11,508 bases of DNA from a virus (lineage: Duplodnaviria > Heunggongvirae > Uroviricota > Caudoviricetes): positions 1 to 11,508 of IMG/VR virus record IMGVR_UViG_2681813225_000024; one strand, 5' to 3'. The notes beneath the pieces were generated by a model that worked only from the letters and a program-made list of their open reading frames with translations, was not told where the DNA came from and searched no databases. Each line of letters begins with the position of its first letter. Position 1 is the stretch's first letter. This document shows, piece by piece, positions 1 to 11,508 of this stretch. The position numbers and the translations under genes were made by a program.

Positions 1-603
1 TTTCACACCTTCCAGCATGGTTTCGGGTTTTACCCCCTCATTCAAACGGGCTTTCCAGGCTTTGAAGGCTGCAGATTTTGAATTGCCACCAGCACGTTTG
101 GGGTATGCCAGCCATGCCTGCTCAAACTCCGGAGAGTATTCCGGTCGGTTTGAACGAACTCGCACAGACTCATCAGCAGATGCACCAACAGCTATTGGTT
201 CATTGACTGGTTCAAAAGAGTGACTGGTTCTGGGTGAATCTCCTGCACTACCCCCTGGTGCAACTCCTGCACTACCTGGTGAATTTGCTGCACCAGATAG
301 TGAATTATTTGCACTACCCCCTAGTGAATCTCCTGCACCATCCAGATGAAGGAGATAGATATTACTTGAGTTACCTTTTTCACCTTTCCGGGTGACTTTT
401 TTTACCAGCCCGGAATCACAAAGGGCCGCAATATGATTCATCACAGAACGTTTGCTAATCTCGCACTGATCAGCAATATGCTGGTAGCTGGGCCAGCACT
501 CACCCTGATCGCTGGCATTATCAGCCAGCTTGATCAGAACCAGTTTTCGCAATGGATTACCCACTCGAATTTTCATCGCTTTAACCATCAGCTCCATACT
601 CAT
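1..603 (-). CDS. Phage replication initiation protein, N-terminal helix-turn-helix domain plus Gly/Ser/Ala-rich linker; 3' end lies beyond window start (partial)
   Basis: Manual minus-strand translation from ATG at 603..601 is open to position 1 (201 codons, no stop); it is absent from the ORF track because no stop lies in the window. Begins MSMELMVKAMKIRVGNPLRKLVLIKLADNASDQGECWPSYQHIADQCEISKRSVMNHIAALCDSGLVKK, which resembles the HTH domain found at the N-terminus of phage replication initiators. ATG overlaps the upstream gene stop as ATGA (coupling). It is the last gene of the PR-like operon. Confidence 0.7.
   Translation of the reverse strand, partial: MSMELMVKAMKIRVGNPLRKLVLIKLADNASDQGECWPSYQHIADQCEISKRSVMNHIAALCDSGLVKKVTRKGEKGNSSNIYLLHLDGAGDSLGGSANNSLSGAANSPGSAGVAPGGSAGDSPRTSHSFEPVNEPIAVGASADESVRVRSNRPEYSPEFEQAWLAYPKRAGGNSKSAAFKAWKARLNEGVKPETMLEGVK
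225..350. repeat. Imperfect tandem repeats (~21-24 bp units) inside the replication gene, encoding a low-complexity linker (GDSLGGSANNSLSGAANSPGSAGVAPGGSAGDSP)
   Basis: Plus strand shows reiterated units such as ggtgaatctcctgcactaccccct / ggtgcaactcctgcactacct / ggtgaatttgctgcacca / agtgaatctcctgcacca; the reading frame is maintained through them. Confidence 0.6.
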
Positions 604-836
604 GCTGCACCTCCGAGATGCTTCATGTTTTTTCCGGAGCGAAAGGTTATAAGCGGCATACTGACGCGGTAATTACGGCCCAGCGGTTCACAAATCACCT
701 TCTGACATTCACGGTCAACCAGGCTAACACGTAGAACATGCCCTGCAGGCGTGGTGTACCACTGCCCAACTGTAGGAATTGATGTTTTTTTACGCTGAAA
801 TAAACGGTAAATATTGAGGATCAACGGATTAAGCAT
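600..836 (-). CDS. Hypothetical small phage protein (78 aa)
   Basis: ORF track; ATG at 836..834; its stop overlaps the replication gene ATG (ATGA) and its start overlaps the upstream gene stop (ATGCTTAA), giving translational coupling within the operon. No recognisable motif. Confidence 0.45.
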   Translation of the reverse strand: MLNPLILNIYRLFQRKKTSIPTVGQWYTTPAGHVLRVSLVDRECQKVICEPLGRNYRVSMPLITFRSGKNMKHLGGAA

Positions 837-1473
837 GACGATGCCCTCCGCTGATATTCAGGAGACGGTGAATATGAAAATTAGCCTTATCCGCCAGACG
901 AATACGTTCAGCCTGCAAGTTAAGAAGGGTTTCTACCAGAACCTGATGCGCCTGCGGATCCGAAAGAGTTACCTTGCGCAGAGCACGTAGTGCAGTTGTT
1001 ACATAACTGAGTTTATGTAAGTCTTCATCATTCAGACGAGTGAGGGCTGGGACAGTAGCCATGATGGCAGCCTCCTTGATCGGTGAAATACTTCCACCAC
1101 CGGAAACGCCAATTTCGCTGGTGGTGAACTGAACGGGGTTGGCGTAACCGGTGATCAAGGAAACCGGCGCATCTTTCGATGCCCCCGCCCAGCCCACCAT
1201 AACTTTGATGTGAGCAAATGCGGACGATAAAAAAGACGCTGGCGCGTCATATATCGCCTTGATCAATTCCAGGACGCCAATCCCGGCACCCGCTTTATAA
1301 GGTGCCTGAACAGTGTAACGTCCCGGAATGGCAGAATCAATGTGCTGGTGGTCCTTCACACTCAACAAAATCACGCCTGAATTTCCACAAAGGACTAAAG
1401 CACTCATGCGGGTAGTCTTTGCGAAGATAGATAACGCGCTGTGTTTCTGGTTCCCAACGAATAACATGGACAT
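829..1473 (-). CDS. Hypothetical phage protein; start uncertain (ORF opens at TTG 1518; ATG at 1473 has RBS-like AAGAGGG just upstream)
   Basis: ORF track 829..1518, 229 aa. Sequence looks protein-like (ALVLCGNSGVILLSV, GVSGGGSISPIKEAAIMATVPALTRL). Its 5' part overlaps the upstream 109-aa ORF out of frame, so the start or the gene integrity is unresolved. Confidence 0.4.
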   Translation of the reverse strand: MSMLFVGNQKHSALSIFAKTTRMSALVLCGNSGVILLSVKDHQHIDSAIPGRYTVQAPYKAGAGIGVLELIKAIYDAPASFLSSAFAHIKVMVGWAGASKDAPVSLITGYANPVQFTTSEIGVSGGGSISPIKEAAIMATVPALTRLNDEDLHKLSYVTTALRALRKVTLSDPQAHQVLVETLLNLQAERIRLADKANFHIHRLLNISGGHRHA

Positions 1474-1666
1474 AAAGCCCTCTTCCGTCACGAAACCAGC
1501 GGTTAAGTTCCCGCACAACTCGCCCCCCCACAGTCAGGTAAAGTTCTCTGTGGTTACTTACAGCCAGGTGATTTGGTAATCTGCATTCATGCCGTAACAA
1601 CAGGTGTTCAGCGACACTGACCACCAGCTGTTGCGACAAACGGTTATTTGCCGTTAAACTGTTCAT
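1337..1666 (-). CDS. Hypothetical phage protein (109 aa)
   Basis: ORF track; ATG at 1666..1664 overlaps the stop of the upstream CII-like gene (ATGA); GGAG-containing RBS about 10 nt upstream. No recognised family. Confidence 0.45.
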   Translation of the reverse strand: MNSLTANNRLSQQLVVSVAEHLLLRHECRLPNHLAVSNHRELYLTVGGRVVRELNRWFRDGRGLYVHVIRWEPETQRVIYLRKDYPHECFSPLWKFRRDFVECEGPPAH

Positions 1667-2226
1667 GCGTTAGTTTCTCCACAGACACAAAACGCCACGA
1701 CGCCCGGAGCTGCACACTCGCGGGCGTCACTCTTTTCTGGAGCGCAAAAGATTTTGTAGACCAGTGCTGCATGCTCTTGGAGCTTCGAAATTGACAGATA
1801 CAACTCATCATTAATTGCTGTCTGCTCGTGTGGCTCCACGACCCCATCTTCGATTGCCGAACGAATCTGCTTTGAGTAATTCCCGATCTGTTCGATGACT
1901 TCCAGCAGGCGCTGGTTTATATCGGCGTTCTCTACTTCCTCAATTTCAGGAAGCGATACGAACACCCCACCAGCAGACTGTGCGACAGCATCCGCAATGT
2001 AGTGAGTGCCAGCCGCGCGCTGTAAAACCATTGCCCATCCCAGCGGGAAAATCTGATCGCCATCGGCACGAAGGCGGTTAAATAATGCGTTCTCTGTTAC
2101 ATCCAGCCAGTCAGCTGCTTCAGCGTAACCACCCGGCAACGCTGCGATAGTTTTTCTGACAGCTTTCACGTACCACTCAGGCTGTTTTTCTACTTTCCAG
2201 TGATACTTACCCACGGTTAGCCTCAT
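1663..2226 (-). CDS. Putative CII-like / YdaT-like early regulatory protein (about 183-187 aa)
   Basis: ORF track; sits immediately downstream of the Cro-like gene, the position CII holds in lambdoid phages and YdaT holds after YdaS. Alternative GTG start at 2214 has GAGG 6 nt upstream. The family call rests on synteny and weak recollection, not on a verified motif. Confidence 0.5.
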   Translation of the reverse strand: MRLTVGKYHWKVEKQPEWYVKAVRKTIAALPGGYAEAADWLDVTENALFNRLRADGDQIFPLGWAMVLQRAAGTHYIADAVAQSAGGVFVSLPEIEEVENADINQRLLEVIEQIGNYSKQIRSAIEDGVVEPHEQTAINDELYLSISKLQEHAALVYKIFCAPEKSDARECAAPGVVAFCVCGETNA

Positions 2227-2257
2227 CGTTCTGTGGTTAAAAATTGAAGGTGTTCTG

Positions 2258-2458
2258 TTAATCTTTCGGATAGATATCCGGTCTTAAGTCAGATTTCGTA
2301 ATTGCACCTGACGTGCATTGCTCAAGTTTTTTCGCCAGCACAAAACTGGCTTTTTTATAACCATTGAAAACCAGCCGTAAGTAGCCAGGTGTTGAGCCAA
2401 CTTTTCCGGCCAACTCGCCCTGCTGTTCTTTGGTTAAAGAGTCCCAATACGCTTTCAT
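2258..2458 (-). CDS. Cro-like HTH regulator (YdaS/Cro family), 66 aa from ATG 2458
   Basis: ORF track frame 2258..2563; internal ATG at 2458 gives MKAYWDSLTKEQQGELAGKVGSTPGYLRLVFNGYKKASFVLAKKLEQCTSGAITKSDLRPDIYPKD, a typical small Cro/YdaS-type HTH. AAGG RBS about 10 nt upstream. Divergent from the CI-like gene across an operator-bearing intergenic region. Confidence 0.65.
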   Translation of the reverse strand: MKAYWDSLTKEQQGELAGKVGSTPGYLRLVFNGYKKASFVLAKKLEQCTSGAITKSDLRPDIYPKD

Positions 2459-2464
2459 ACAATA

Positions 2465-2531
2465 TGTACCTTCAGTATACATATTACATGATTGAAATGA
2501 ACCTTCAAGATACTTGTACCTTATCGGTACA
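2465..2531. promoter_or_regulatory. OR-like operator cluster: three 17-bp sites fitting TGTAC-N7-GTACA, with divergent promoters for cro-like and cI-like genes
   Basis: Sites read directly: 2465-2481 TGTACCTTCAGTATACA; 2498-2514 TGAACCTTCAAGATACT; 2515-2531 TGTACCTTATCGGTACA (perfect palindromic half-sites). They lie between the cro-like start (2458, minus) and the cI-like start (2549, plus). Confidence 0.5.
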
Positions 2532-2548
2532 AAGGTTTTAATTTCGTT

Positions 2549-3223
2549 ATGAAAACAATCCATGACATCCGGCGGTCTAACGCCAGAAACCTGAGAGATG
2601 GTGTTGGCGGAAATTCATCCTTTGCCACCATGATTGATCGCGAGCCAACCCAGACCAGTAGGTTTATGGGGGATGGCGCTACTAAAAATATCGGTGACAG
2701 CATGGCACGGCACATCGAAAAATGTTTCGACCTGCCTGTCGGATGGCTTGATCAAGAACACCAGACAACGAACATCACAAAAAAACCTGATGTTTCAATC
2801 ACTAACAAACAAATAACGTTAGTCCCTGTCATATCATGGGTACAGGCCGGAGCATGGAAAGAAGTTGGCTATTCTGAGGTTGATTTGAGCACAGCAGAAA
2901 CGTATCCCTGCCCTGTCCCCTGTGGCGAAATGACTTATATCTTGCGGGTGATTGGTGATTCAATGATTGATGAGTACCGCCCTGGAGACATGATTTTTGT
3001 TGATCCCGAAGTCCCTGCCTGCCACGGTGACGACGTTATTGCATTGATGCACGATACAGGCGAAACCACCTTCAAGCGATTGATAGAAGATGGAACACAG
3101 CGTTATCTCAAAGCATTAAACCCAAACTGGCCTGAGCCTTACATTAAGATTAACGGTAATTGCTCTATAATTGGTACAGTGATTTTCTCGGGAAAACCAA
3201 GAAGATACACAATAAAGGTCTAA
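2549..3223 (+). CDS. CI/LexA-like prophage repressor (N-terminal HTH, C-terminal S24 peptidase autocleavage domain), 224 aa
   Basis: ORF track. C-terminal region has the S24 hallmarks: GDSM (Ser nucleophile) in RVIGDSMIDEYRPGDMIFVD and a downstream Lys in TTFKRL. The N-terminus is HTH-like. Weak RBS, as is common for cI genes. Confidence 0.85.
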   Translation: MKTIHDIRRSNARNLRDGVGGNSSFATMIDREPTQTSRFMGDGATKNIGDSMARHIEKCFDLPVGWLDQEHQTTNITKKPDVSITNKQITLVPVISWVQAGAWKEVGYSEVDLSTAETYPCPVPCGEMTYILRVIGDSMIDEYRPGDMIFVDPEVPACHGDDVIALMHDTGETTFKRLIEDGTQRYLKALNPNWPEPYIKINGNCSIIGTVIFSGKPRRYTIKV

Positions 3224-3235
3224 TCAATATTTATG

Positions 3236-3260
3236 AACCTGCTTCGGCAGGTTTTTTTAT
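3236..3260 (+). terminator. Rho-independent terminator downstream of the repressor gene
   Basis: Stem ACCTGC (3237-3242) / GCAGGT (3247-3252), loop TTCG, followed by a T7 run (3252-3258). Confidence 0.7.
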
Positions 3261-3262
3261 AC

Positions 3263-3291
3263 TTGACAATGTACTCATGAGATACATAACG
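3263..3291 (+). promoter_or_regulatory. PL-like early-left promoter with overlapping OL-like operator
   Basis: Perfect -35 TTGACA at 3263-3268; weak -10 candidate CATAAC about 16 bp downstream. The 17-bp site TGTACTCATGAGATACA (3270-3286) has the same TGTAC-N7-ATACA architecture as the OR sites. Confidence 0.4.
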
Positions 3292-3708
3292 TATCCAAAA
3301 GAAACATGGGGCAGGCAAGATTCAAACAAAATTTGGTTGTAACACGGCGTATGGCACATGCGTCGTTAGCGGTCTGGGGACGTTAAAGGGGACAATCCAC
3401 TCCTTGCTCGGGCAAACAAACCAGGTAGCCGGAATGTGCAAGTCAATGATGATGCTGATAAGACGCCTAACCAGCGTGGCGATCCGGTTTGACGCCTGGG
3501 AAGAGACCAGGGTGCAACGATGAGGGCATTTATGGAGCCGCGACAAAGTGTGGTGCCGTAACTGGCTAAGTGCTCTCAGCGTTGTGGTCATCCGCGAAAT
3601 GGCGCGGCGGTAAGTATGGCTGGGTTACTCTTTCCCCGTTGAGGACACCGGATTGTCAGGTTGACCATACGCCTGAGTGACAACCCCACCACAACAGCCA
3701 CTGCTTTG

Positions 3709-3755
3709 GCGGTACCAGTTTGTACACTTGCTTCCGGCTGGTACCGCTCTTTTTA
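3709..3755 (+). terminator. Terminator-like hairpin in the early-left leader
   Basis: 10-bp stem GCGGTACCAG (3709-3718) / CTGGTACCGC (3738-3747) followed by TCTTTTT. Confidence 0.4.
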
Positions 3756-3756
3756 C

Positions 3757-3845
3757 AAAACAGAGAAGAGCATCACCGGACGACGGGCTCATAACCCAAT
3801 CCATCCGGGCGGCTGCCACCGCAGGTGTTCTTCTCTGTTTTGTGG
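3757..3845 (+). terminator. Second long hairpin (13-bp perfect inverted repeat at base) immediately upstream of the first early gene RBS
   Basis: AAAACAGAGAAGA (3757-3769) is exactly complementary to TCTTCTCTGTTTT (3829-3841), enclosing a 59-nt GC-rich segment; ends in a U-run. Confidence 0.35.
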
Positions 3846-3891
3846 AGAAACCAACCGACCTTGCAGGGTCGATATGATGAGGAGCAGCAAA

Positions 3892-4254
3892 ATGGCTAGC
3901 GAACGCAGTACTGATGTGCAGGCATTTATCGGGGAGTTGGACGGCGGCGTATTTGAAACCAAAATCGGCGCTGTTCTCAGTGAAGTCGCTTCCGGTGTGA
4001 TGAACACGAAAACCAAAGGTAAGGTCTCACTCAACCTGGAAATCGAACCATTTGATGAGAACCGTGTGAAAATCAAACACAAACTCTCATATGTTCGCCC
4101 GACTAACCGCGGGAAAATTTCCGAAGAAGACACCACCGAAACGCCGATGTATGTCAATCGCGGTGGTCGCCTGACTATTCTGCAGGAAGACCAGGGACAA
4201 TTACTGACTCTTGCCGGTGAACCTGACGGAAAACTCCGCGCAGCAGGTCATTAA
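3892..4254 (+). CDS. yfdP: YfdP-like conserved prophage early protein (120 aa)
   Basis: ATG at 3892 preceded by GAGGAG with 7-nt spacing; lies in the ORF track frame 3661..4254. Length and position directly upstream of a YfdQ-like gene match the CPS-53 yfdPQRS order as I recall it. Symbol assigned by synteny, not verified. Confidence 0.5.
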   Translation: MASERSTDVQAFIGELDGGVFETKIGAVLSEVASGVMNTKTKGKVSLNLEIEPFDENRVKIKHKLSYVRPTNRGKISEEDTTETPMYVNRGGRLTILQEDQGQLLTLAGEPDGKLRAAGH

Positions 4255-4318
4255 TACGTTATTAATAAACTGATTATTTATCGCATCACTGAATATCTTT
4301 ATATAGTGAGGACTTATT

Positions 4319-5143
4319 ATGTCTCAGAACTTAGACGCAACCGCAATTAATCAAATCCATGCCCTTATTTCTGCTCAGGGTGTTAATGAAATTATCAGTA
4401 AGATTGGTGCCGATGCTGTGGCATTGCCTGAGAATTTCCGCATTCATGATCTGGAAAAATTTAATTTAAATCGTTTCCGTTTCCGTGGTGCGCTTTCCAC
4501 TGCCAGCATCGATGACTTTACCCGTTATTCTAAAGATCTTGCAGATGAAGGTACCCGCTGCTTTATCGATGCCGATAATATGCGTGCCGTCAGTGTGCTT
4601 AACCTGGGTACTATTGATGAGCCAGGTCACGCAGATAACACTGCCACTCTCAAACTGAAAAAGACAGCACCGTTCTCTGCTCTGTTATCTGTTAATGGCG
4701 AGCGTAACTCCCAGAAGTCACTGGCAGAATGGATTGAAGACTGGGCCGACTACCTTGTGGGCTTTGATGCTAATGGTGACGCTATTCAGGCAACAAAAGC
4801 GGCTGCGGCAGTCCGTAAAATCACGATTGAAGCAAACCAGACCGCTGATTTTGAAGATAATGACTTCAGCGGCAAACGCTCCCTGATGGAGTCTGTCGAA
4901 GCGAAGACCAAAGACATTATGCCAGTGGCATTTGAATTTAAATGCGTTCCGTTTGAAGGCCTTAAAGAACGTCCGTTTAAATTACGCCTCAGCATTATCA
5001 CTGGCGATCGTCCTGTACTGGTTCTGCGCATTATTCAGCTGGAAGCGGTGCAGGAAGAAATGGCTAACGAATTTCGTGATCTGCTTGTTGAGAAATTTAA
5101 AGACAGCAAAGTAGAAACCTTTATTGGTACTTTCACCGCCTGA
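4319..5143 (+). CDS. yfdQ: YfdQ-like protein (DUF2303 family), 274 aa
   Basis: ORF track; AGGA RBS about 9 nt upstream; size and sequence character consistent with E. coli CPS-53 YfdQ; followed by YfdR- and YfdS-like genes in the same order. Confidence 0.65.
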
Positions 5144-5155
5144 TTTCATTACTGC

Positions 5156-5177
5156 AAATGCCCCTGCGGGGGCATTT
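5156..5177 (+). terminator. Terminator-like hairpin after the yfdQ-like gene
   Basis: 9-bp stem AAATGCCCC (5156-5164) / GGGGCATTT (5169-5177), loop TGCG; the U-tract is short, so this may be an attenuator or RNA stability element. Confidence 0.35.
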
Positions 5178-5270
5178 ATGGAAACATAATTTACTCAATA
5201 ATCGCCAGATGGTGATGGCTTCCTTTTACCAGAATTCAGCGCGGTGCAGCGCATATACGTGGAGAACAAA

Positions 5271-5807
5271 ATGTCATTTATTAAAACTTTTTCCGGGAAG
5301 CATTTTTATTATGACAGGATAAATAAAGACGACATCGTGATTAACGATATCGCGGTTTCCCTTTCAAATATCTGTCGCTTTGCAGGACATCTTTCACACT
5401 TCTACAGCGTCGCCCAACATGCGGTGCTTTGCAGCCAGCTGGTACCGCAGGAATTTGCTTTTGAAGCGTTAATGCATGATGCAACAGAAGCATATTGCCA
5501 GGACATCCCCGCACCACTGAAACGCCTTCTTCCTGACTATAAACGGATGGAAGAAAAAATAGACGCCGTAATCCGTGAGAAATACGGGTTACCTCCTGTT
5601 ATGAGCACGCCAGTGAAATATGCCGATCTCATTATGCTGGCAACCGAACGCCGCGATCTCGGGCTTGATGATGGCTCTTTCTGGCCTGTACTGGAAGGTA
5701 TCCCGGCGACAGAGATGTTCAAAGTTATTCCACTGTCACCAGGCCATGCCTACGGGATGTTTATGGAACGTTTTAACGAGTTATCGGAGTTACGCAAATG
5801 CGCATGA
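5271..5807 (+). CDS. yfdR: HD-domain phosphohydrolase, YfdR-like 5'-deoxynucleotidase (178 aa)
   Basis: ATG at 5271 with GGAGA RBS 5 nt upstream (track ORF opens at GTG 5244). HD motif context in AQHAVLCSQL...ALMHDATEAYCQDIP. Size matches YfdR. Confidence 0.65.
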   Translation: MSFIKTFSGKHFYYDRINKDDIVINDIAVSLSNICRFAGHLSHFYSVAQHAVLCSQLVPQEFAFEALMHDATEAYCQDIPAPLKRLLPDYKRMEEKIDAVIREKYGLPPVMSTPVKYADLIMLATERRDLGLDDGSFWPVLEGIPATEMFKVIPLSPGHAYGMFMERFNELSELRKCA

Positions 5808-6160
5808 ATGTTTTCGAAATGGAAGGGTTTCTTCGCGGGAAATGTGTACCGCGAGATCTGAAAGTGAACGAAACAAATGCTGAGTACCTGGTACGTAAAT
5901 TCGATGCGCTTGAAGCTAAATGTACGGCACTGGAAAACAAAATAATACCAGTGTCAGCTGAACTGCCACCAGCAAATGAAAGTGTTCTGTTATTTGATGC
6001 TAACGGAGAAGGCTGGCTAATTGGCTGGCGTTCTCTCTGGTACACCTGGGGACAAAAAGAAACCGGAGAATGGCAGTGGACATTTCAGATCGGGGACCTT
6101 GAAAACGTCAATATCACTCACTGGGCAGTAATGCCGAAAGCACCGGAGAATAAGAAATGA
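5798..6160 (+). CDS. yfdS: YfdS-like protein (120 aa)
   Basis: ORF track; start overlaps the yfdR-like stop; GGAG 8 nt upstream; size and synteny match YfdS. Confidence 0.55.
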   Translation: MRMNVFEMEGFLRGKCVPRDLKVNETNAEYLVRKFDALEAKCTALENKIIPVSAELPPANESVLLFDANGEGWLIGWRSLWYTWGQKETGEWQWTFQIGDLENVNITHWAVMPKAPENKK

Positions 6161-6360
6161 GCGTGATAAAAACTCATACAGGAATTGTTATCACCCGAGA
6201 CGGTCCGCAGGTAAAAAAACTGCACCAGACAAAGCGGATGTGGGTCGTCGGAAAAAACGAGTTTTACCGCAAAGAAACCGGACGCCGCCACTTTGCAGAA
6301 AATACGCGCCGCCGACTGCTGATCGACAGCATCAAGCCTATCGAGGTGAAGCATGTTTAA
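6157..6360 (+). CDS. Hypothetical small basic protein (67 aa)
   Basis: ORF track; ATGA overlap with the preceding stop; GGAG 8 nt upstream. Confidence 0.45.
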   Translation: MSVIKTHTGIVITRDGPQVKKLHQTKRMWVVGKNEFYRKETGRRHFAENTRRRLLIDSIKPIEVKHV

Positions 6361-6592
6361 ACAGAACGAAAAATCTATCGCTCAAATTGCTGAGTATATC
6401 CCGCGTGCGTGCCGGGGTATGCAGTTGCAGGAAGCCAAAGCGCGCCTGGAGAAAAAAATTGCGCTCTATATCGATGACGGCTGTGATGCTGCCGTTCTTA
6501 ACGCAGCGTTCGCGCCAGCTCTTAACAGTCATACGCGGGAGTCTTTTTTTTCGCGCATCGCAGCGCAGATCCGTAAAGGAGGCAACCAGTGA
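6353..6592 (+). CDS. Hypothetical protein (79 aa)
   Basis: ORF track; start overlaps the previous stop; GAGG RBS upstream; protein-like composition. Confidence 0.45.
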   Translation: MFKQNEKSIAQIAEYIPRACRGMQLQEAKARLEKKIALYIDDGCDAAVLNAAFAPALNSHTRESFFSRIAAQIRKGGNQ

Positions 6593-7143
6593 GCGAGATT
6601 AACTATCAGGCTCTGCGACTGGCGGCAGAAAATGCAACACCAGGCGAATGGTGTGCTGATGACTACCATGGAGTAATTGCCGATGCCGGACTGAACGCCA
6701 ATTACTACATAGCATCATGCTCAGGACCAGATAATCGCGCCAATAAACGATTCATAGCCGCCGCCAATCCTGCCACCGTCTTGGCGCTGCTGGATGAGCT
6801 GGAAGCAGCAGAGAAGCGAAACGCTGAATTACAAAGCGAGAATGCATACATCCGCAACCGGTACAAAGAACTGGACCTATTAATCGGGAAAAATATTCTG
6901 GTCATGCAGGCTGCCATTATCGAATGGCAGGCAACTGGCGACGCTAAGAGCGGACTGGCATGGATTTATAACACACTGTTTGGCCCTGGCGAATTACCGG
7001 ACGAATCTGAGAAAGATGCTCAGGCCTACTTTAATCGCAAATATGCACCGATTGACGAAAAGCTTATGGCGCTTCACAAGTGGTTTTGGGAACAAAGTGA
7101 AGCCGAGCGCGCCGCCGCCAACATTGGTGTGAAGGGGAAGTGA
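6589..7143 (+). CDS. Ead/Ea22-like family protein (184 aa)
   Basis: ORF track; GTG start overlapping the upstream stop (GTGA) with AAAGGAGG 7 nt upstream. N-terminal LRLAAENATPGEW and a coiled-coil-like middle region are typical of Ea22-like early-left proteins. Confidence 0.6.
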   Translation: MSEINYQALRLAAENATPGEWCADDYHGVIADAGLNANYYIASCSGPDNRANKRFIAAANPATVLALLDELEAAEKRNAELQSENAYIRNRYKELDLLIGKNILVMQAAIIEWQATGDAKSGLAWIYNTLFGPGELPDESEKDAQAYFNRKYAPIDEKLMALHKWFWEQSEAERAAANIGVKGK

Positions 7144-7144
7144 G

Positions 7145-7336
7145 ATGAACGGACAAATCTCAATTGTTCGACCGGGAGCATGTGACGATTGCGAGATACG
7201 AATGATTATTCGTCTGGCGATGGGGAAAACAATAACTGCTCTCATTACTCCAGAAAATCTCGCATTAGCATTAACAGGAAAGTCAGACCTGCCAGTAGAG
7301 CTAAAGCTGCGAAATGTTGAGATTAAGGTGAAATAG
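7145..7336 (+). CDS. Hypothetical small protein (63 aa)
   Basis: ORF track; starts 1 nt after the upstream stop; purine-rich RBS. Confidence 0.4.
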   Translation: MNGQISIVRPGACDDCEIRMIIRLAMGKTITALITPENLALALTGKSDLPVELKLRNVEIKVK

Positions 7337-7338
7337 CT

Positions 7339-8346
7339 ATGACCACTATTACCAAAGAGCGACTGCTGACAATCAAGCAGTGGCGCGAAACATACGGACC
7401 TGGTAGCAACGTTGTACTGCCAGCAGAAGAAGCGGAAGAACTGGCACGGATTGCACTGGCATCATTGGAAGCAGATCCAGTTAAACGAGTTAACTCAGAT
7501 CAGATGCACCGAGTCTGCTTAGAAGCTAATCGCTATTTAGATAAATATGACGCGATGGCGAAAGAGGTAAATAAGTTGCTTGGACGCATCGCCCCGCCAG
7601 CGCCAGTATTTAACGGCGAATACGGTGACGCATATCAGGGCGCTCGTGAAGACCTGTCCATCTGGAAACGGCGAGCGCTTGAAGCTGATGAGCACGTTCG
7701 GCGACTGGAGCAAATCAATGACCACATGGTGAAAGAGGCGCAGGGAGAATCACGCATGGGCGAGCCTGTAATACGTGAGCCAGCACCGGTAGTGCCTGAA
7801 GAAGCAACTCCGGAAAACGTAGAAATGCTCTCTGGCTATGTTTCAACGTACAAATTAACCGATAGCGAGCGCGATATTGCTGCCGAAATATGGAACGCCT
7901 GCCGCGCCGCCATGCTTCAGGGTAGCCAACCTGTAAGCCAAACTTACAAGTTTCCAGTTAATACACCTTGCCAGGATGCGCCAGCCCATATCTGGCTGCA
8001 AACAGCTGGAGTATGGCCAGAAGATGGCGAGTTAAGCGAATTAACGTGGTGCAGCCACAATCAGCACCATGATGACACGCTATATGTTCGAGCTGACTTG
8101 GTAAATGGCAACTCTCCGGGAACTCCGGATAGTTGGATAAGCTGTAGTGATCAAATGCCTGAAAAGGGCCAGAACGTGCTTATTTCGGTGAATTTCGATA
8201 GCTCTCTGGTTGAACCGCTAATATGCTCCGCACGCTATACCGGAAGAACCTTTCGGCGCGGAGATGCAACGATTAAGCCGGGTAATGGTATTGAGCAAGC
8301 AACTCACTGGATGCCGCTACCGGAACCGCCGCAGGAGGTGAAGTGA
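7339..8346 (+). CDS. DUF551 domain-containing phage protein (335 aa)
   Basis: ORF track; C-terminal HWMPLPEPP is characteristic of DUF551 proteins in enterobacterial prophages; AAGGTGA RBS. Confidence 0.6.
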   Translation: MTTITKERLLTIKQWRETYGPGSNVVLPAEEAEELARIALASLEADPVKRVNSDQMHRVCLEANRYLDKYDAMAKEVNKLLGRIAPPAPVFNGEYGDAYQGAREDLSIWKRRALEADEHVRRLEQINDHMVKEAQGESRMGEPVIREPAPVVPEEATPENVEMLSGYVSTYKLTDSERDIAAEIWNACRAAMLQGSQPVSQTYKFPVNTPCQDAPAHIWLQTAGVWPEDGELSELTWCSHNQHHDDTLYVRADLVNGNSPGTPDSWISCSDQMPEKGQNVLISVNFDSSLVEPLICSARYTGRTFRRGDATIKPGNGIEQATHWMPLPEPPQEVK

Positions 8347-8918
8347 TGAACAACTTAATGATCGACCTTGAGACGATGGGGAAAAATAAGGATGCACCGA
8401 TCGTTTCCATTGGCGCGGTGTTCTTCACTCCAGAAACCGGAGACATCGGACAAGAATTCTATACGGTTGTTAGCCTGGAAAGTGCTATGGGGCAAGGAGC
8501 TACACCTGACGGCGATACCATCCTGTGGTGGTTGAAACAAAGCCCTGAAGCACGAGCTGCAATCTGTATTGATGATACTTTGTCGATCAGCGATGCTCTC
8601 TCAGAACTAAATCATTTCATTAACCGGCACGCAGCCAATACGAAATATTTAAAAGTCTGGGGTAACGGGGCCACCTTCGACAACGTAATTTTACGTGGAG
8701 CTTATGAGCGAGCAGGACAAATCTGCCCGTGGGCATACTGGAATGACCACGATGTACGCACGATCGTTACGCTTGGGCGTTCCATCGGATTCGACCCCAA
8801 AATGGACATGCCTTTCGATGGCGAACGGCACAACGCCCTGGCCGATGCCCGTCATCAGGCAAAATATGTTTCCGCTATCTGGCAGAAATTAATTCCTGCC
8901 ACCAGCACAGAATTATGA
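8346..8918 (+). CDS. DnaQ-like (DEDD) 3'-5' exonuclease, phage-type (190 aa)
   Basis: ORF track 8343..8918; ATG at 8346 overlaps the upstream stop, with GGAGGTGA RBS. N-terminal MIDLETMG matches exo motif I (D-x-E); later acidic and His residues fit the DEDDh pattern. Confidence 0.65.
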   Translation: MNNLMIDLETMGKNKDAPIVSIGAVFFTPETGDIGQEFYTVVSLESAMGQGATPDGDTILWWLKQSPEARAAICIDDTLSISDALSELNHFINRHAANTKYLKVWGNGATFDNVILRGAYERAGQICPWAYWNDHDVRTIVTLGRSIGFDPKMDMPFDGERHNALADARHQAKYVSAIWQKLIPATSTEL

Positions 8919-8954
8919 TTTTCCCGGGTGCAGCCGGTTTTGATGGAGAAAATT

Positions 8955-9236
8955 ATGAACACCTTGTTTTTACTGATGGCTGAATTCAATACCCCTAACA
9001 TTGAACTCTCAGCAGTTAGCCAAAAGTACTTTGGCATGAGTCCAGCCACGGCAGAAGCAAAAGCAAACGCTTGTAAGTTGCCCGTTCCAACATATCGCAT
9101 CGGCACATCACAAAAAGCAAAACGTTGCATCAATATTCAGGATCTTGCGGAATACATAGACAAAAGACGAGAAGAAGGACGTATCGAGTGGGAACAGGTC
9201 AGAACAAGCAAACAGAAGGGCAAAGAACATCACTAA
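8955..9236 (+). CDS. PrtN/AlpA-like small DNA-binding regulator, possibly excisionase-like (93 aa from ATG 8955)
   Basis: ORF track frame 8928..9236; ATG at 8955 with GGAG 7 nt upstream. MNTLFLLMAEF...PVPTYRIGTSQKAKRCINIQDLAEYIDKRREEG resembles pyocin-activator PrtN family proteins. Last gene before the bidirectional terminator. Confidence 0.55.
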   Translation: MNTLFLLMAEFNTPNIELSAVSQKYFGMSPATAEAKANACKLPVPTYRIGTSQKAKRCINIQDLAEYIDKRREEGRIEWEQVRTSKQKGKEHH

Positions 9237-9240
9237 AGAA

Positions 9241-9264
9241 AAAACCCGCCTAAAGGCGGGTTTT
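9241..9264. terminator. Bidirectional rho-independent terminator
   Basis: AAAACCCGCC-TAAA-GGCGGGTTTT; GC stem flanked by A-run and T-run, so it works on both strands. Ends the plus-strand early operon and the convergent minus-strand small ORF. Confidence 0.8.
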
Positions 9265-9283
9265 CAAAAAGCACCAGCTATGA

Positions 9284-9457
9284 TCATGCTGCTTTGCGAC
9301 GACGAAGCTTACCCTGCTGCTCTTTACCAGAGACAGTAGCGTGAGTGAACGCATTAGGAGCAGCCTTCATCAGAACTTCAACAGCAGCACCCATACCTGC
9401 GAATGCTTTCATTGTGTCGAACTTAACCTGTGGCTTGGTTGCTTTTTGATCTTTCAT
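9284..9457 (-). CDS. Small hypothetical protein, 57 aa (MKDQKATKPQVKFDTMKAFAGMGAAVEVLMKAAPNAFTHATVSGKEQQGKLRRRKAA)
   Basis: Not in the ORF track (under 60 aa); found by manual translation. ATG at 9457..9455 with GGGAG 6 nt upstream; stop TGA at 9286..9284 just before the bidirectional terminator. Lys-rich N-terminus, hydrophobic core, basic C-terminal tail. Confidence 0.5.
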   Translation of the reverse strand: MKDQKATKPQVKFDTMKAFAGMGAAVEVLMKAAPNAFTHATVSGKEQQGKLRRRKAA

Positions 9458-9653
9458 AGAAAACTCCCGAGACAGTAAAGGCGTCTCTAACCCTTTCTTT
9501 AAAGCTAGCTTGTTTCGCTAACTTATGCCAATCGATCATGTCGATTGGTGACATCGTTTCTTAGTAGTTTAAGCACAAAACGACTGCCATAGATGTACCT
9601 TTAAGGTAATCTGGACGGGTATCCTACAATTTGTAGACCCTTCTCGTCTATAC

Positions 9654-10190
9654 CTACTGAGCAAATTTAAGAAAGATATCCTGCAGCTCATCAATGACTG
9701 CCGACATCACATAACCGCACTGTTCCATGTGGAAACCAAAAGACTCGTAATACTGCACCAGTTCTGGTACTGGCTCTACAATGTGGACAACTTTACATTC
9801 AACAGCTTTACAAAATATAAAAGCACTCATAAGAGTGAGTAAAACCATGCGCCCTTTCAATGGGTGAGATTCATCTTCTCTAGAAAACCTTTCGATCATA
9901 TGGATACGAAAGATGTTTTCTTCAACCCCATAAACACAAATTGCTGCTCCTGATGGTATTCCCTGAACCCGACCTTGCTGAACAAGTTTTATACAGAACT
10001 CATACTTTTCTCTGGAGTTGCCATAGGTACTTAACGCATAGTCCCATTCAAGCTCACCATAGCCACCACACAGAATCTTGTAATCATCATCACTGAGCGG
10101 ACCAACAGCAAGAGGTAAGCCGACATGATCAATAATCAACTGGATATTGTTACGTACTGATTGACCTATCTCGTCCAGGGTAAGCATCAT
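9654..10190 (-). CDS. Hypothetical protein (178 aa) in AT-rich cargo; weak resemblance to a GNAT-like acyltransferase fold
   Basis: ORF track; tandem ATGs at 10190 and 10187 with GAGG upstream. Loose fit to a GNAT C-terminal pattern (IHMIERF...LKGRMVLLTLMSAFIFCKA...YYESFGF) but no clear Q/R-x-x-G-x-G/A acetyl-CoA motif. Visibly more AT-rich than the phage early genes. Confidence 0.5.
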   Translation of the reverse strand: MMLTLDEIGQSVRNNIQLIIDHVGLPLAVGPLSDDDYKILCGGYGELEWDYALSTYGNSREKYEFCIKLVQQGRVQGIPSGAAICVYGVEENIFRIHMIERFSREDESHPLKGRMVLLTLMSAFIFCKAVECKVVHIVEPVPELVQYYESFGFHMEQCGYVMSAVIDELQDIFLKFAQ

Positions 10191-10219
10191 GGCCTCTCAA
10201 GCGGAACACTAAAAGTCGC

Positions 10220-10225
10220 ATTATA
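10220..10225 (-). promoter_or_regulatory. Candidate -10 hexamer (TATAAT on minus strand) for the 178-aa gene
   Basis: Plus ATTATA at 10220-10225 is TATAAT on the minus strand, about 29 nt upstream of the ATG; no convincing -35. Confidence 0.3.
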
Positions 10226-10739
10226 TCTCATTCTTAAGCCGCGTATGGATTACACCTTGAAATGAAAACGCCGGGTTCCCAATAGGCTCCCACAGAGTGT
10301 ATAACTACTTGTTTTTCAAAAACGGTACATCCTATCGAGCATTGGTGCAACGCTAAACCGACCACTCCAGTGAACGTCAGTTTTTTCAGGCATTGCGCTG
10401 GTTTGGTTGATTTTTTGCATTTCAGAATTACCGTGCATTTTCAAATGTAGAGATTATTTTATCAATATATCATGGGGTTATGTTATTCAGCTTCACTGTT
10501 CAGGAGGCTCAATAGCGGGGTACTATACCATAACAACAGGAAGCGCCTGTCTCATTGCAAAAGAAAATTGAGATCCTCTCAAGGCATGAAGCTCTCACGA
10601 AGTGATGGAAATAATCTTATTAGCCGTTAACTTTGTTAAGGCCAATGATAAACAATCCAGGTTCGACGATAAATAAAAAATCACACATTAAACTCTGGTG
10701 ATATATCTCCCTGCTAATAGCATTGATAGAGAAAAAAGA

Positions 10740-10757
10740 ACCCAATAAATATTGGGT
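10740..10757 (-). terminator. Rho-independent terminator of the 235-aa gene
   Basis: Hairpin ACCCAAT-AAAT-ATTGGGT; on the minus strand it is followed by TCTTTTTTCTC, and it lies about 45 nt downstream of the stop at 10801-10803. Confidence 0.6.
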
Positions 10758-10800
10758 CCTTTTATATAATGCCTTCCATACTATCGAAGAACTTCACATA

Positions 10801-11508
10801 TTATTTCTCCGATTTAACCCCGAACAAATCATAAATTAATTTAGAAGTGTCTGTAAGTATTTTAATCTCTTCCTTTGAGGTTGGGTCAAACGACTTCGCG
10901 AAGCTAATTAATTGTGGTGCAGCATCTCGCATTTTGCTTAAAATATCAGGATCGAGCGTTCCTTCATTCACCAGATGTGACATCTTATCCAGATAGCCAT
11001 CAAAATTCATTTCTCCCCCATCAGCCAGACGCTTCATCTCTCCCAAGTACTTCTTCATATCACGTTGAGATAATTTTTCAAACTGAGCTTTCAGGTAGCT
11101 CTCATTATTTTCATTAATATACACTGTTTCTGATAAATCTGCGTAGGCACTAGAATATGAAAGTGAAATTAACAGCGAAGCAAATAATTTTAAGCTGTTG
11201 TCATCATGTTCCTGGCAGGCATTAACAAACGTTAAAAAACCAGAACCTATTGCTTGAAAATGTATATTCGCTAAAGGTTCATTATCCTTAGATTCCTCAT
11301 AAAATAGCTGAACCGTGGAGGGAAGGCCATTCTTAGTTTCTACATCAAAAGTACATTGTTCAATGGGAGTCGCATCTTTATTATCCCCAGGATTACATAT
11401 ACTATTAATCGCGAAATGAAAAATAGCCCGGTCAACAACTGATGCAATAAAGTCACGATCGTTTAAATCCTCATCAGTGCAATCGTCAATATACTTATTG
11501 ACCCACAT
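10801..11508 (-). CDS. Hypothetical acidic protein (at least 235 aa), AT-rich, unknown function; 5' end may extend beyond the window
   Basis: ORF track; the first in-window ATG sits exactly at the window edge (11508..11506), so the true start is uncertain. Long uninterrupted frame with coherent protein-like composition despite low GC; own terminator downstream. Confidence 0.5.
   Translation of the reverse strand: MWVNKYIDDCTDEDLNDRDFIASVVDRAIFHFAINSICNPGDNKDATPIEQCTFDVETKNGLPSTVQLFYEESKDNEPLANIHFQAIGSGFLTFVNACQEHDDNSLKLFASLLISLSYSSAYADLSETVYINENNESYLKAQFEKLSQRDMKKYLGEMKRLADGGEMNFDGYLDKMSHLVNEGTLDPDILSKMRDAAPQLISFAKSFDPTSKEEIKILTDTSKLIYDLFGVKSEK

Follow-up and report, generated by a model that had tools for sequence, protein, structure and literature searches.

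The interval from position 3292 to 3891 of an 11,508-nucleotide (nt) stretch of Caudoviricetes DNA (IMG/VR record IMGVR_UViG_2681813225_000024, positions 1 to 11,508; the window) lies directly downstream of a PL-like promoter in a lambdoid immunity region and is a mosaic of conserved plus-strand RNA modules rather than a single leader structure. We read it, with a probability of roughly 0.6, as an RNase-processed noncoding-RNA cassette with a leaky terminator, forming the untranslated 5′ part of the PL operon in phages with SfV/e14-type immunity. The modules comprise a pseudoknotted RNA (module A, 3343-3585), a homologue of the sequence located 5′ of dicF in Qin-type prophages (module B, 3584-3704), an intrinsic terminator at the DicF position (hairpin 1, 3705-3754), and a three-way junction bearing an arm that resembles the anticodon arm of initiator tRNA (module C, or hairpin 2, 3755-3843). 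An initial annotation had described the interval as an untranslated, structured leader of about 600 nt, and this description holds, since no conserved open reading frame (ORF) was found and both of the hairpins reported there are real.

Modular composition of the leader

Folding and covariation analysis across homologous prophages, named as a check in the initial annotation, was carried out and supported both the folds and the compensatory changes within them. Compared with shuffled sequences, the whole leader folds with a z score of −4.2 on the plus strand and −3.3 on the minus strand. When phage genomes were searched by BLAST, separate segments of the leader were found to have separate sets of relatives: P1/P7, Uetakeviruses (phiV10, SPN1S), and other lambdoid phages for 3331-3587, Qin-like prophages for 3581-3703, and SfV, SfIV, ST64B, and Klebsiella phages for 3687-3895. 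The order of module A, then module B or a substitute spacer, then the terminator, then module C is fixed in 62 of 121 module A loci, which are those in lambdoid contexts. SfV and e14 agree with the window in the promoter and in the 3′ part of the leader, yet in place of modules A and B they hold a protein gene (orf33/ymfJ); therefore, the stretch between PL and the 3′ cassette is a variable cargo slot.

The coding potential of the interval is limited to ORFs found mechanically, among them one of 89 amino acids (aa) on the minus strand (3322-3591), others of 64 aa (minus strand) and 66 aa (plus strand), and an in-frame TTG extension from 3661. None of them matches Pfam. Across the module A core, any given reading frame remains open in at most 33 of 84 distinct relatives, and the lengths of the modules differ among relatives by non-multiples of three.

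A search of Rfam 15, at the gathering score and at E ≤ 10, returned only chance-level matches in 3200-3950 for all models, including riboswitches, ribozymes, GOLLD, ROOL, and EAR, and the sole gathering-level matches of the window (C4 and IsrK) are located outside the leader. Neither ARAGORN nor the Rfam tRNA model detected a tRNA or transfer-messenger RNA in the window. No description of the leader elements or of their conserved strings was found in a full-text literature search of incomplete coverage. Modules A and C thus match no described family that was found and are apparently undescribed RNA families. Of the explanations that had been proposed initially, an embedded noncoding RNA gained stronger support than expected, from the covariation of modules A and C and from the homology to the DicF locus.

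Module A is a conserved pseudoknotted RNA

Module A consists of a core (3343-3516) and the long hairpin P6 (3514-3585), both on the plus strand. An alignment of 40 distinct sequences (A3) was used to model the core as four helices, one pseudoknot, and a second, candidate pseudoknot. The helices are P1 (3345-3349/3361-3365), which closes the invariant loop UAUGGCACAUG; P2 (3374-3377/3421-3424); P4 (3463-3466/3474-3477), with the loop CUAACCA; and P5 (3495-3499/3507-3511), with the loop GAAGAGA. The pseudoknot joins 3469-3472 in the P4 loop to the downstream strand 3486-3489, and the possible second one would pair 3354-3359 with 3434-3439. In the alignment, 97.1% of the cells are paired, versus 27 to 44% in slid controls; compensatory change occurs at 12 pairs, and none of 500 shuffles was as good. 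The pseudoknot reads CACC/GGUG in 32 sequences and AACC/GGUU in the other 8, with no exceptions, so that its variable pair is C-G in the former and A-U in the latter. Because G·U pairs are frequent, the RNA is assigned to the plus strand, which is the sense of PL. The joining strands and loops (UAUGGCACAUG, GUAGCCGGAAUGUGCAAG, GGCGAUnCGGUGUGAC, and GAAGAG) are invariant while the helices vary, and the invariance of these single-stranded segments suggests that a particular host or phage partner is bound. Exact strings served as seeds for the alignments, and divergent members of module A were found independently by BLAST.

An exact 19-mer of module A is present in at least 120 viral contigs, and a related 19-mer is present in 24 species-representative genome contigs. 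The real copies in the latter set are from Enterobacterales, apart from two metagenome-assembled genome records, one being a chance match and the other a short contig. Module A occurs in 1833 of 5426 complete Escherichia coli genomes, on chromosomes and P1-like plasmids, and is annotated in none of them. The module A covariance model (R1) scores 160 bits, and module A has no Rfam match at E ≤ 10.

Many copies of module A adjoin tRNA genes. It lies directly after tRNA-Ile(CAU) in P1 and P7, ahead of ban in P7, and directly before tRNA-Arg(UCU) in Uetakeviruses, where the tRNA begins at the equivalent of position 3584. Overall, tRNA-Arg(UCU) starts exactly at the 3′ end of module A in 29 loci, the 5′ edge coincides with the end of a tRNA(CAU) in 26, and no tRNA is nearby in 70. 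The Uetakevirus copies have their own promoter-like sequence and form an RNA-only unit of module A, tRNA, and terminator. In these phages, the loop motif UUCCCUUGAUG is present twice, at the P2 apex of module A and again in the loop of the terminator downstream of tRNA-Arg (approximately 1380-1440 and 1860-1900), and copies of the window type retain CUCCUUGCUCG in the apical part of P2. In Enterobacter phage Tyrion, an int-alpA RNA (Rfam RF02996, 44 bits; 2598-2662) is located about 1 kb downstream of the module A copy.

P6 belongs to a recurrent type of carrier stem

P6 is a long hairpin (CAACGAUGAGGGCA ... UGCUCUCAGCGUUG) with a variable apical insert and a 3′ end that reads GUUGUGG; we refer to stems of this type as carrier stems. 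It folds at −33.9 kcal/mol (z = −4.0), and its closing stem (CAACGAUGAGnGCA/UGCnCUCAGCGUUG, followed by UGG) is kept in relatives via many compensatory variants. The apical insert ranges from about 15 to more than 100 nt and includes a T-arm-like sequence in some relatives. In the Uetakeviruses BUCT554 and SPN1S, for example, it holds the tRNA T-arm-like GGGTTCGAATCCC and GGTTCAATTCC (approximately 1600-1690 and 1610-1725, respectively), and long stems can therefore bear tRNA-like cargo. Carrier stems recur, with compensatory changes, before module A in Uetakeviruses, repeatedly in the P7 ban operon, in SfV, in e14, and upstream of dicF in the K-12 prophage Qin. The stretch of the P7 ban operon between tRNA-Thr and terB (1410-2130) is packed with carrier stems and contains a module C-like element (1622-1726). 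The same stretch includes a GUGGUGAAUGCGGCU..GCGCACGCGG motif that K-12 has downstream of dicF as well. ARAGORN additionally detects a tRNA-Ser(UGA)-like gene there (1866-1952) that lacks an annotation.

The 3′ strand of P6 is homologous to that of the stem upstream of dicF in K-12 Qin, with which it shares GUGCnCUynnnGUUGUGG and a similar fold. In K-12, the 190-nt DicF species has a 5′ end made by RNase III, and the 53-nt form requires RNase E (10.1101/2023.04.14.536235). Counting 190 nt back from the annotated 3′ end of DicF leads to position 946 of the K-12 Qin stretch, inside the 3′ strand of the hairpin (GUGCG|CUUCC). P6 is thus a stem of about 20 bp that is homologous to a mapped K-12 site, and because of this homology it is probably an RNase III site.

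Module B and a terminator at the DicF position

Module B is about 88% identical to the sequences of PPompW and mEp460_ev081 directly upstream of their Rfam DicF matches and is homologous to the corresponding sequence of K-12 Qin. A tRNA-like fold was considered for module B and rejected, as most relatives break the GUGGUCA/UGACCAU helix and shuffled sequences fold at least as well.

Hairpin 1 follows, with a stem at 3708-3718/3738-3748 and a U-run at 3750-3754. The stem pairs G3709-G3718 with C3738-C3747 (10 Watson-Crick pairs plus one G·U pair) around a 19-nt loop, and it is followed by C and T3750-T3754. Hairpin 1 folds at −21.2 kcal/mol (z = −4.0), and ST64B and Citrobacter retain its stem and U-run in spite of sequence differences. 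The initial annotation had proposed tandem terminator-like hairpins. Hairpin 1 is a terminator as stated, but hairpin 2 lacks a U-run, and so there is no tandem pair.

The locus of hairpin 1 is that of DicF in PPompW, mEp460_ev081, and K-12 Qin, as it follows an RNase III-type hairpin and module B and ends in a Rho-independent terminator. Hairpin 1 aligns with the 3′ part of DicF (UUUGGCGGUAyCAGUUU ... CCGCyCUUUUU), with a different loop, and a gap of about 19 nt in the window spans the aligned 5′ end of DicF, including the single-stranded seed UUUCUGGUGACG. With the Rfam DicF model (RF00039), neither the gathering score nor a threshold of E ≤ 10 gave a match in the window, and both of the Qin-type comparison sequences match it at 76.7 bits. 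Membership in the DicF family was rejected, given the missing seed and model match at an otherwise homologous locus, and, judged from the sequence, hairpin 1 is not DicF but a conserved terminator that occupies its position.

Module C resembles the anticodon arm of initiator tRNA

Relatives of module C were collected with a 17-nt degenerate pattern (16 specified bases), BLAST, and a covariance model, yielding an alignment of 25 distinct sequences (A6). In this alignment, 95.1% of the cells are paired, versus 38 to 54% when slid, and nine pairs are compensatory. The structure comprises a 20-bp helix (3755-3774/3824-3843) that closes a three-way junction, the 5-bp arm S2 (3776-3780/3804-3808), a GGG/CCC stem with a 7-nt loop (3785-3797, GGGCUCAUAACCC), and a fourth hairpin, S4 (3809-3812/3819-3822); the G·U pairs place it on the plus strand. 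It folds at −48.5 kcal/mol (z = −6.8), and the minimum free energy fold equals the covariation structure. The perfect 13-bp inverted repeat noted initially at this position does exist, but the perfect repeat extends to 15 bp (3755-3769/3829-3843) and is part of the 20-bp helix, which is itself a carrier stem of the P6 type.

The apical arm of module C, CGACGGGCUCAUAACCCAA, shares 17 of 19 bases with the anticodon arm of the E. coli initiator tRNA (metY), including the three G-C pairs and the loop CUCAUAA that characterize the initiator anticodon stem-loop. This look-alike is located about 95 nt upstream of the start codon. Module C as a whole is not a cloverleaf, and ARAGORN and the Rfam tRNA model call no tRNA there. 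In Klebsiella phages, the late operon contains a homologue of module C immediately behind tRNA-Asn and tRNA-Arg. Although its 7-bp acceptor-like stem leads into ACCA, the homologue is called by no tRNA finder. A further copy is present in the P7 ban operon (39.8 bits). The conservation pattern of module C suggests a specific partner. A pairing of its loop with the AUGAG beside the Shine-Dalgarno sequence was considered and rejected, as it is not conserved in relatives.

Module C always follows a terminator and is followed in turn by a hairpin with a U(U/G)GCAG loop and by the ribosome-binding site of the first gene, which may be yfdP-like, xisE (e14), or another gene. In the window, the small hairpin is CGACC-UUGCAG-GGUCG (3856-3871, plus strand), just upstream of the ribosome-binding site. 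By itself its folding in the window is not significant (z = −0.5); in relatives it is kept with other stems (GGCGG/CCGCC and GCCC/GGGC) and the same U(U/G)GCAG loop. Such hexaloops on short covarying stems also recur within S4 of module C in several relatives and in P7 (approximately 1685-1705), and they may represent a binding site.

The cassette of terminator and module C is present in 2811 of 5426 complete E. coli genomes, including e14 of K-12, where the loop has diverged to UUAAUAA and module C lies under the annotated gene ymfH. This K-12 gene is annotated over both the terminator and module C (2363-2674 of the e14 stretch). In many genomes, yfdP as called by the Prokaryotic Genome Annotation Pipeline (PGAP) overlaps the equivalent of 3700-3892, which stops before the ATG at 3892. 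Both ymfH and the extended yfdP look like mis-annotations over structured RNA.

Genetic setting of the leader

The window represents the immunity region of a lambdoid prophage of the SfV/cdtI/mEp460/2H10/e14 type. On the plus strand, a cI-like repressor gene encoding an S24 peptidase (Pfam; 2549-3223) is closed by an intrinsic terminator (3235-3259; stem at 3235-3254 followed by a T-run; 8 pairs in the terminator scan), and the same element is annotated in SfV and Ayreon. The PL-like promoter (3263-3290) reads TTGACA (3263-3268), a 16-nt spacer, and CATAAC (3285-3290), and overlaps an operator-like inverted repeat, ATGTAC..ATACAT. A consensus promoter scan did not call a promoter at 3263-3290. 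We infer PL at this position because its counterpart in K-12 e14, which shares the repressor, the terminator, and the spacing, reads TTGACA-16-CATAAT and because a promoter is annotated at the equivalent position in Ayreon. Transcription would start near 3297. Operator-like repeats of the TGTAC..GTACA type are found on either side of the repressor gene (2514-2532 and 3270-3288); they are similar to those at PL of HK022, though the leader in the window has no put site.

As the initial annotation had indicated, a first early gene is present after the leader; its ATG is at 3892, not 3893. This gene (3892-4254, plus strand) is yfdP-like and matches phrog_204, of unknown function, with no match in Pfam, and is preceded by the Shine-Dalgarno sequence GAGGAG (3880-3885). 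The in-frame ATGs at 3874 and 3877 serve as the start in some annotations, and orf32 of SfV begins at the equivalent of 3892. No promoter was found by a scan inside 3755-3891. Farther downstream, the operon encodes a DUF2303 (yfdQ-like) protein, an HD-domain protein, DUF551 proteins, Ead/Ea22, an Rv2179c-like exoribonuclease, and Xis. The Rv2179c-like 3′-5′ exoribonuclease (8343-8918, plus strand; Pfam E = 4e-75) is striking beside a leader of apparently processed RNAs. On the PR side, the minus strand contains a tandem of C4 antisense RNA (1117-1204, 82 bits) and IsrK RNA (1229-1305, 64 bits), both matched by Rfam. The pair (1117-1305) lies inside a mechanical ORF (829-1518), in a region that SfV annotates as orf37 “immunity region,” and suggests a P1-type antisense immunity unit in a lambdoid prophage.

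A proposed processing model for the PL transcript

Under the reading that we favor, the carrier stems of the PL transcript, namely, P6 and the 20-bp module C helix, would be cut by RNase III, with further cuts elsewhere by RNase E or by activities of the RNase P type. Processing would free a module A RNA of about 170 to 240 nt and an RNA of about 170 nt containing module B and the terminator, the latter being the counterpart of the 190-nt DicF species. Polymerases that pass the imperfect terminator, hairpin 1, would continue into yfdP and the rest of the early-left operon, and the read-through transcripts, trimmed at module C, would constitute the early mRNA. With a leaky terminator and RNA processing of this kind, early-left expression would depend on these features and not on N/nut or put.

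Several points weigh against this reading. The transcription start, the processing sites, and the efficiency of the terminator are inferred throughout. For RNase III cleavage, the model extrapolates from a single mapped site in the homologous hairpin of another prophage, and the position of that site follows from a length of 190 nt estimated on a gel. The structure of module B alone is unremarkable (z = +1.1), and two PHROG families overlap module C. For the 15- to 19-nt strings with which relatives were collected, invariance arises partly by construction. The model also assigns no role to modules A and C themselves.

A tentative extension would supply such roles. Module A could be a new class of phage-borne catalytic or protein-binding RNA, freed from early transcripts beside tRNAs and acting in trans on the host tRNA, translation, or defense machinery, with module C as a decoy of the initiator tRNA anticodon arm that titrates a factor recognizing tRNAfMet, such as methionyl-tRNA synthetase, the 30S P site with initiation factor 3, or a VapC-type tRNAfMet nuclease. 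We consider this proposal possible, though doubtful; if it is true, a third to half of E. coli strains carry the PL leader as an RNA-only cassette for counterdefense or host takeover.

Alternative explanations for the leader

The proximity of modules A and C to tRNA genes in other phages raises the alternative that the modules are decaying relics of a phage tRNA operon, with a function limited to being cut from the transcript. The GUGG and CCACCA strings at the module junctions look like tRNA ends, a T-arm-like GGUUCGAAUCC is present in some P6 inserts, and the anticodon arm look-alike of module C would fit as well. We nonetheless consider this explanation unlikely. Across many genera of Enterobacterales, long unpaired stretches do not vary and helices compensate. 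Three unrelated phage types have retained the modules, which are also present in a third to half of E. coli genomes. This combination marks a folded RNA under purifying selection. Descent from a tRNA operon fits the likely origin of the modules, not their selective pattern.

The most interesting rival is that module A, or the whole leader, is a cis-acting processive antiterminator that modifies RNA polymerase in the manner of put and replaces N. In lambda, the first gene of PL is the antiterminator N, and put promotes terminator read-through in cis via the zinc-binding domain of the β′ subunit. The initial annotation had reported that no N-like gene is encoded, and this was borne out: no Pfam or PHROG antiterminator was found among the early-left ORFs of the window, and the first PL gene is yfdP-like rather than an arginine-rich N-like protein. 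YmfJ/orf33 was rejected as an N analogue, since it lacks an arginine-rich motif. The only boxA-like string, CGCUCUUUUUACAA (3746-3759), was also rejected, being the 3′ strand and U-run of the terminator and not conserved in relatives.

The position of module A is suitable for such an antiterminator. About 50 nt separate it from PL upstream, and a real terminator follows it. In all three of its contexts it is in an operon ahead of protein genes on the same strand, and the operators of the immunity region are HK022-like. HK022 is likewise a lambdoid phage without N, with a related operator type and a structured RNA just downstream of PL (PMC9378689). The string ACGGCG..CAUGCGUCG is common to helix P1 of module A and stem I of putL, a likeness that serves as a lead only. 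Local alignments of putL and putR to 3291-3895, however, scored 20 and 17, which were at least equaled by 32 and 132 of 300 shuffles, respectively, and R1 finds no match to the put sites of HK022. The architecture differs too, with the put RNA having about 70 nt, two stems, and a conserved motif in stem II (PMC9378689), versus 170 to 240 nt, five or six helices, and pseudoknots in module A. The suggestion that the leader is a put-like element was accordingly dropped as a class assignment. Moreover, phages with the same terminator cassette can do without module A: SfV, ST64B, and e14 have the cassette of terminator and module C without it, as do about half of the terminator cassettes in E. coli. 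There is no terminator between module A and ban in P1 or P7, and in Uetakeviruses module A precedes a tRNA, which only then is followed by the terminator. Taken together, these observations make a put-like mechanism improbable as well.

A ligand- or factor-sensing attenuator, in which module A would be the sensor that controls hairpin 1 in the manner of a riboswitch or T-box, is very unlikely. Attenuation had been offered among the initial explanations, and hairpin 1 is indeed a genuine, positionally conserved terminator that polymerase has to pass before it gets to yfdP, but there is no sign of regulation. The complex conserved fold of module A upstream of a terminator would suit a sensor, and the pairing of CACCA in the P4 loop with GGUG recalls pairing with the 3′ end of a tRNA. 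Against this, the terminator is about 190 nt away from module A, with the independently mobile module B in between; no alternative pairing of module A with the terminator was seen; module A occurs without a terminator in P1/P7 and beside tRNAs; and no Rfam riboswitch matches. The mobile spacer and the tRNA contexts in particular make a riboswitch-type attenuator unlikely.

Small protein genes hidden in the interval, such as the 89-aa minus-strand ORF, are the least probable explanation: ORFs of 64 to 89 aa are present, several phage records annotate hypothetical proteins there, PGAP extends yfdP or ymfH over module C, and two ORFs over hairpin 2 match PHROG families of unknown function (phrog_3651 and phrog_33599; E = 5e-38 and 5e-17), but the latter two ORFs lie on opposite strands of the same DNA, one of the matches spans only half of its profile, no frame is conserved, and the substitutions are compensatory for RNA helices with plus-strand G·U pairs, and because of the opposite-strand overlap and RNA-compensatory evolution they are read as annotation artifacts.

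Significance and comparison with known systems

Two strongly covarying RNAs have thus escaped annotation in between a third and a half of complete E. coli genomes, among them that of K-12 (e14). Classic phages (P1, P7, SfV, and ST64B) and Stx-converting phages also have them. They occupy the position of N/nutL in lambda, and their characterization could explain early-left expression in lambdoid phages without N, show the role of a conserved, tRNA-flanked phage RNA, and reveal why an initiator tRNA look-alike precedes the first early gene. The long RNase III-type stems appear as a reusable design that carries interchangeable RNA cargo and ties the dicF locus to wider phage RNA cassettes. The analysis also flags probable mis-annotated ORFs over structured RNA.

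Other operon leaders offer partial parallels. The lambda N leader has an RNase III hairpin, and in the metY-nusA-infB operon a tRNA, terminators, and RNase III sites are located ahead of the protein genes. As in these systems, a long double-stranded stem lies in the operon leader of the window shortly before the first ribosome-binding site, and tRNA or tRNA-like elements and terminators precede the coding part. Unlike the lambda N leader, the window has neither nutL boxA/boxB nor N, and its stem, at which cleavage is predicted, bears a conserved tRNA-like three-way junction. Mimics of a tRNA anticodon arm in mRNA leaders are represented by the thrS operator, and module C is similar to this type in holding the initiator tRNA anticodon stem-loop GGGCUCAUAACCC.

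The closest analogues of module A are GOLLD and ROOL, which are large, complex, conserved noncoding RNAs of prophages, of unknown function and often near tRNA genes (PMC5737381). Module A is likewise a conserved complex RNA of prophages adjacent to tRNAs; it differs from these in being 170 to 240 nt, versus about 580 to 800 nt, in its occurrence in Enterobacterales, in its location inside protein-coding early operons, and in matching no Rfam model.

The closest known system for the leader as a whole is the dicBF operon of Qin, also an early-left operon of a lambdoid prophage under a cI-like repressor. In both, a long hairpin ending in GUUGUGG is followed by module B and a Rho-independent terminator, and the downstream protein genes need read-through. 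The window differs from the dicF locus in its terminator loop and in lacking the 5′ end of DicF and a match to RF00039, and from Qin more broadly in that module A replaces ydfABC upstream and module C follows the terminator.

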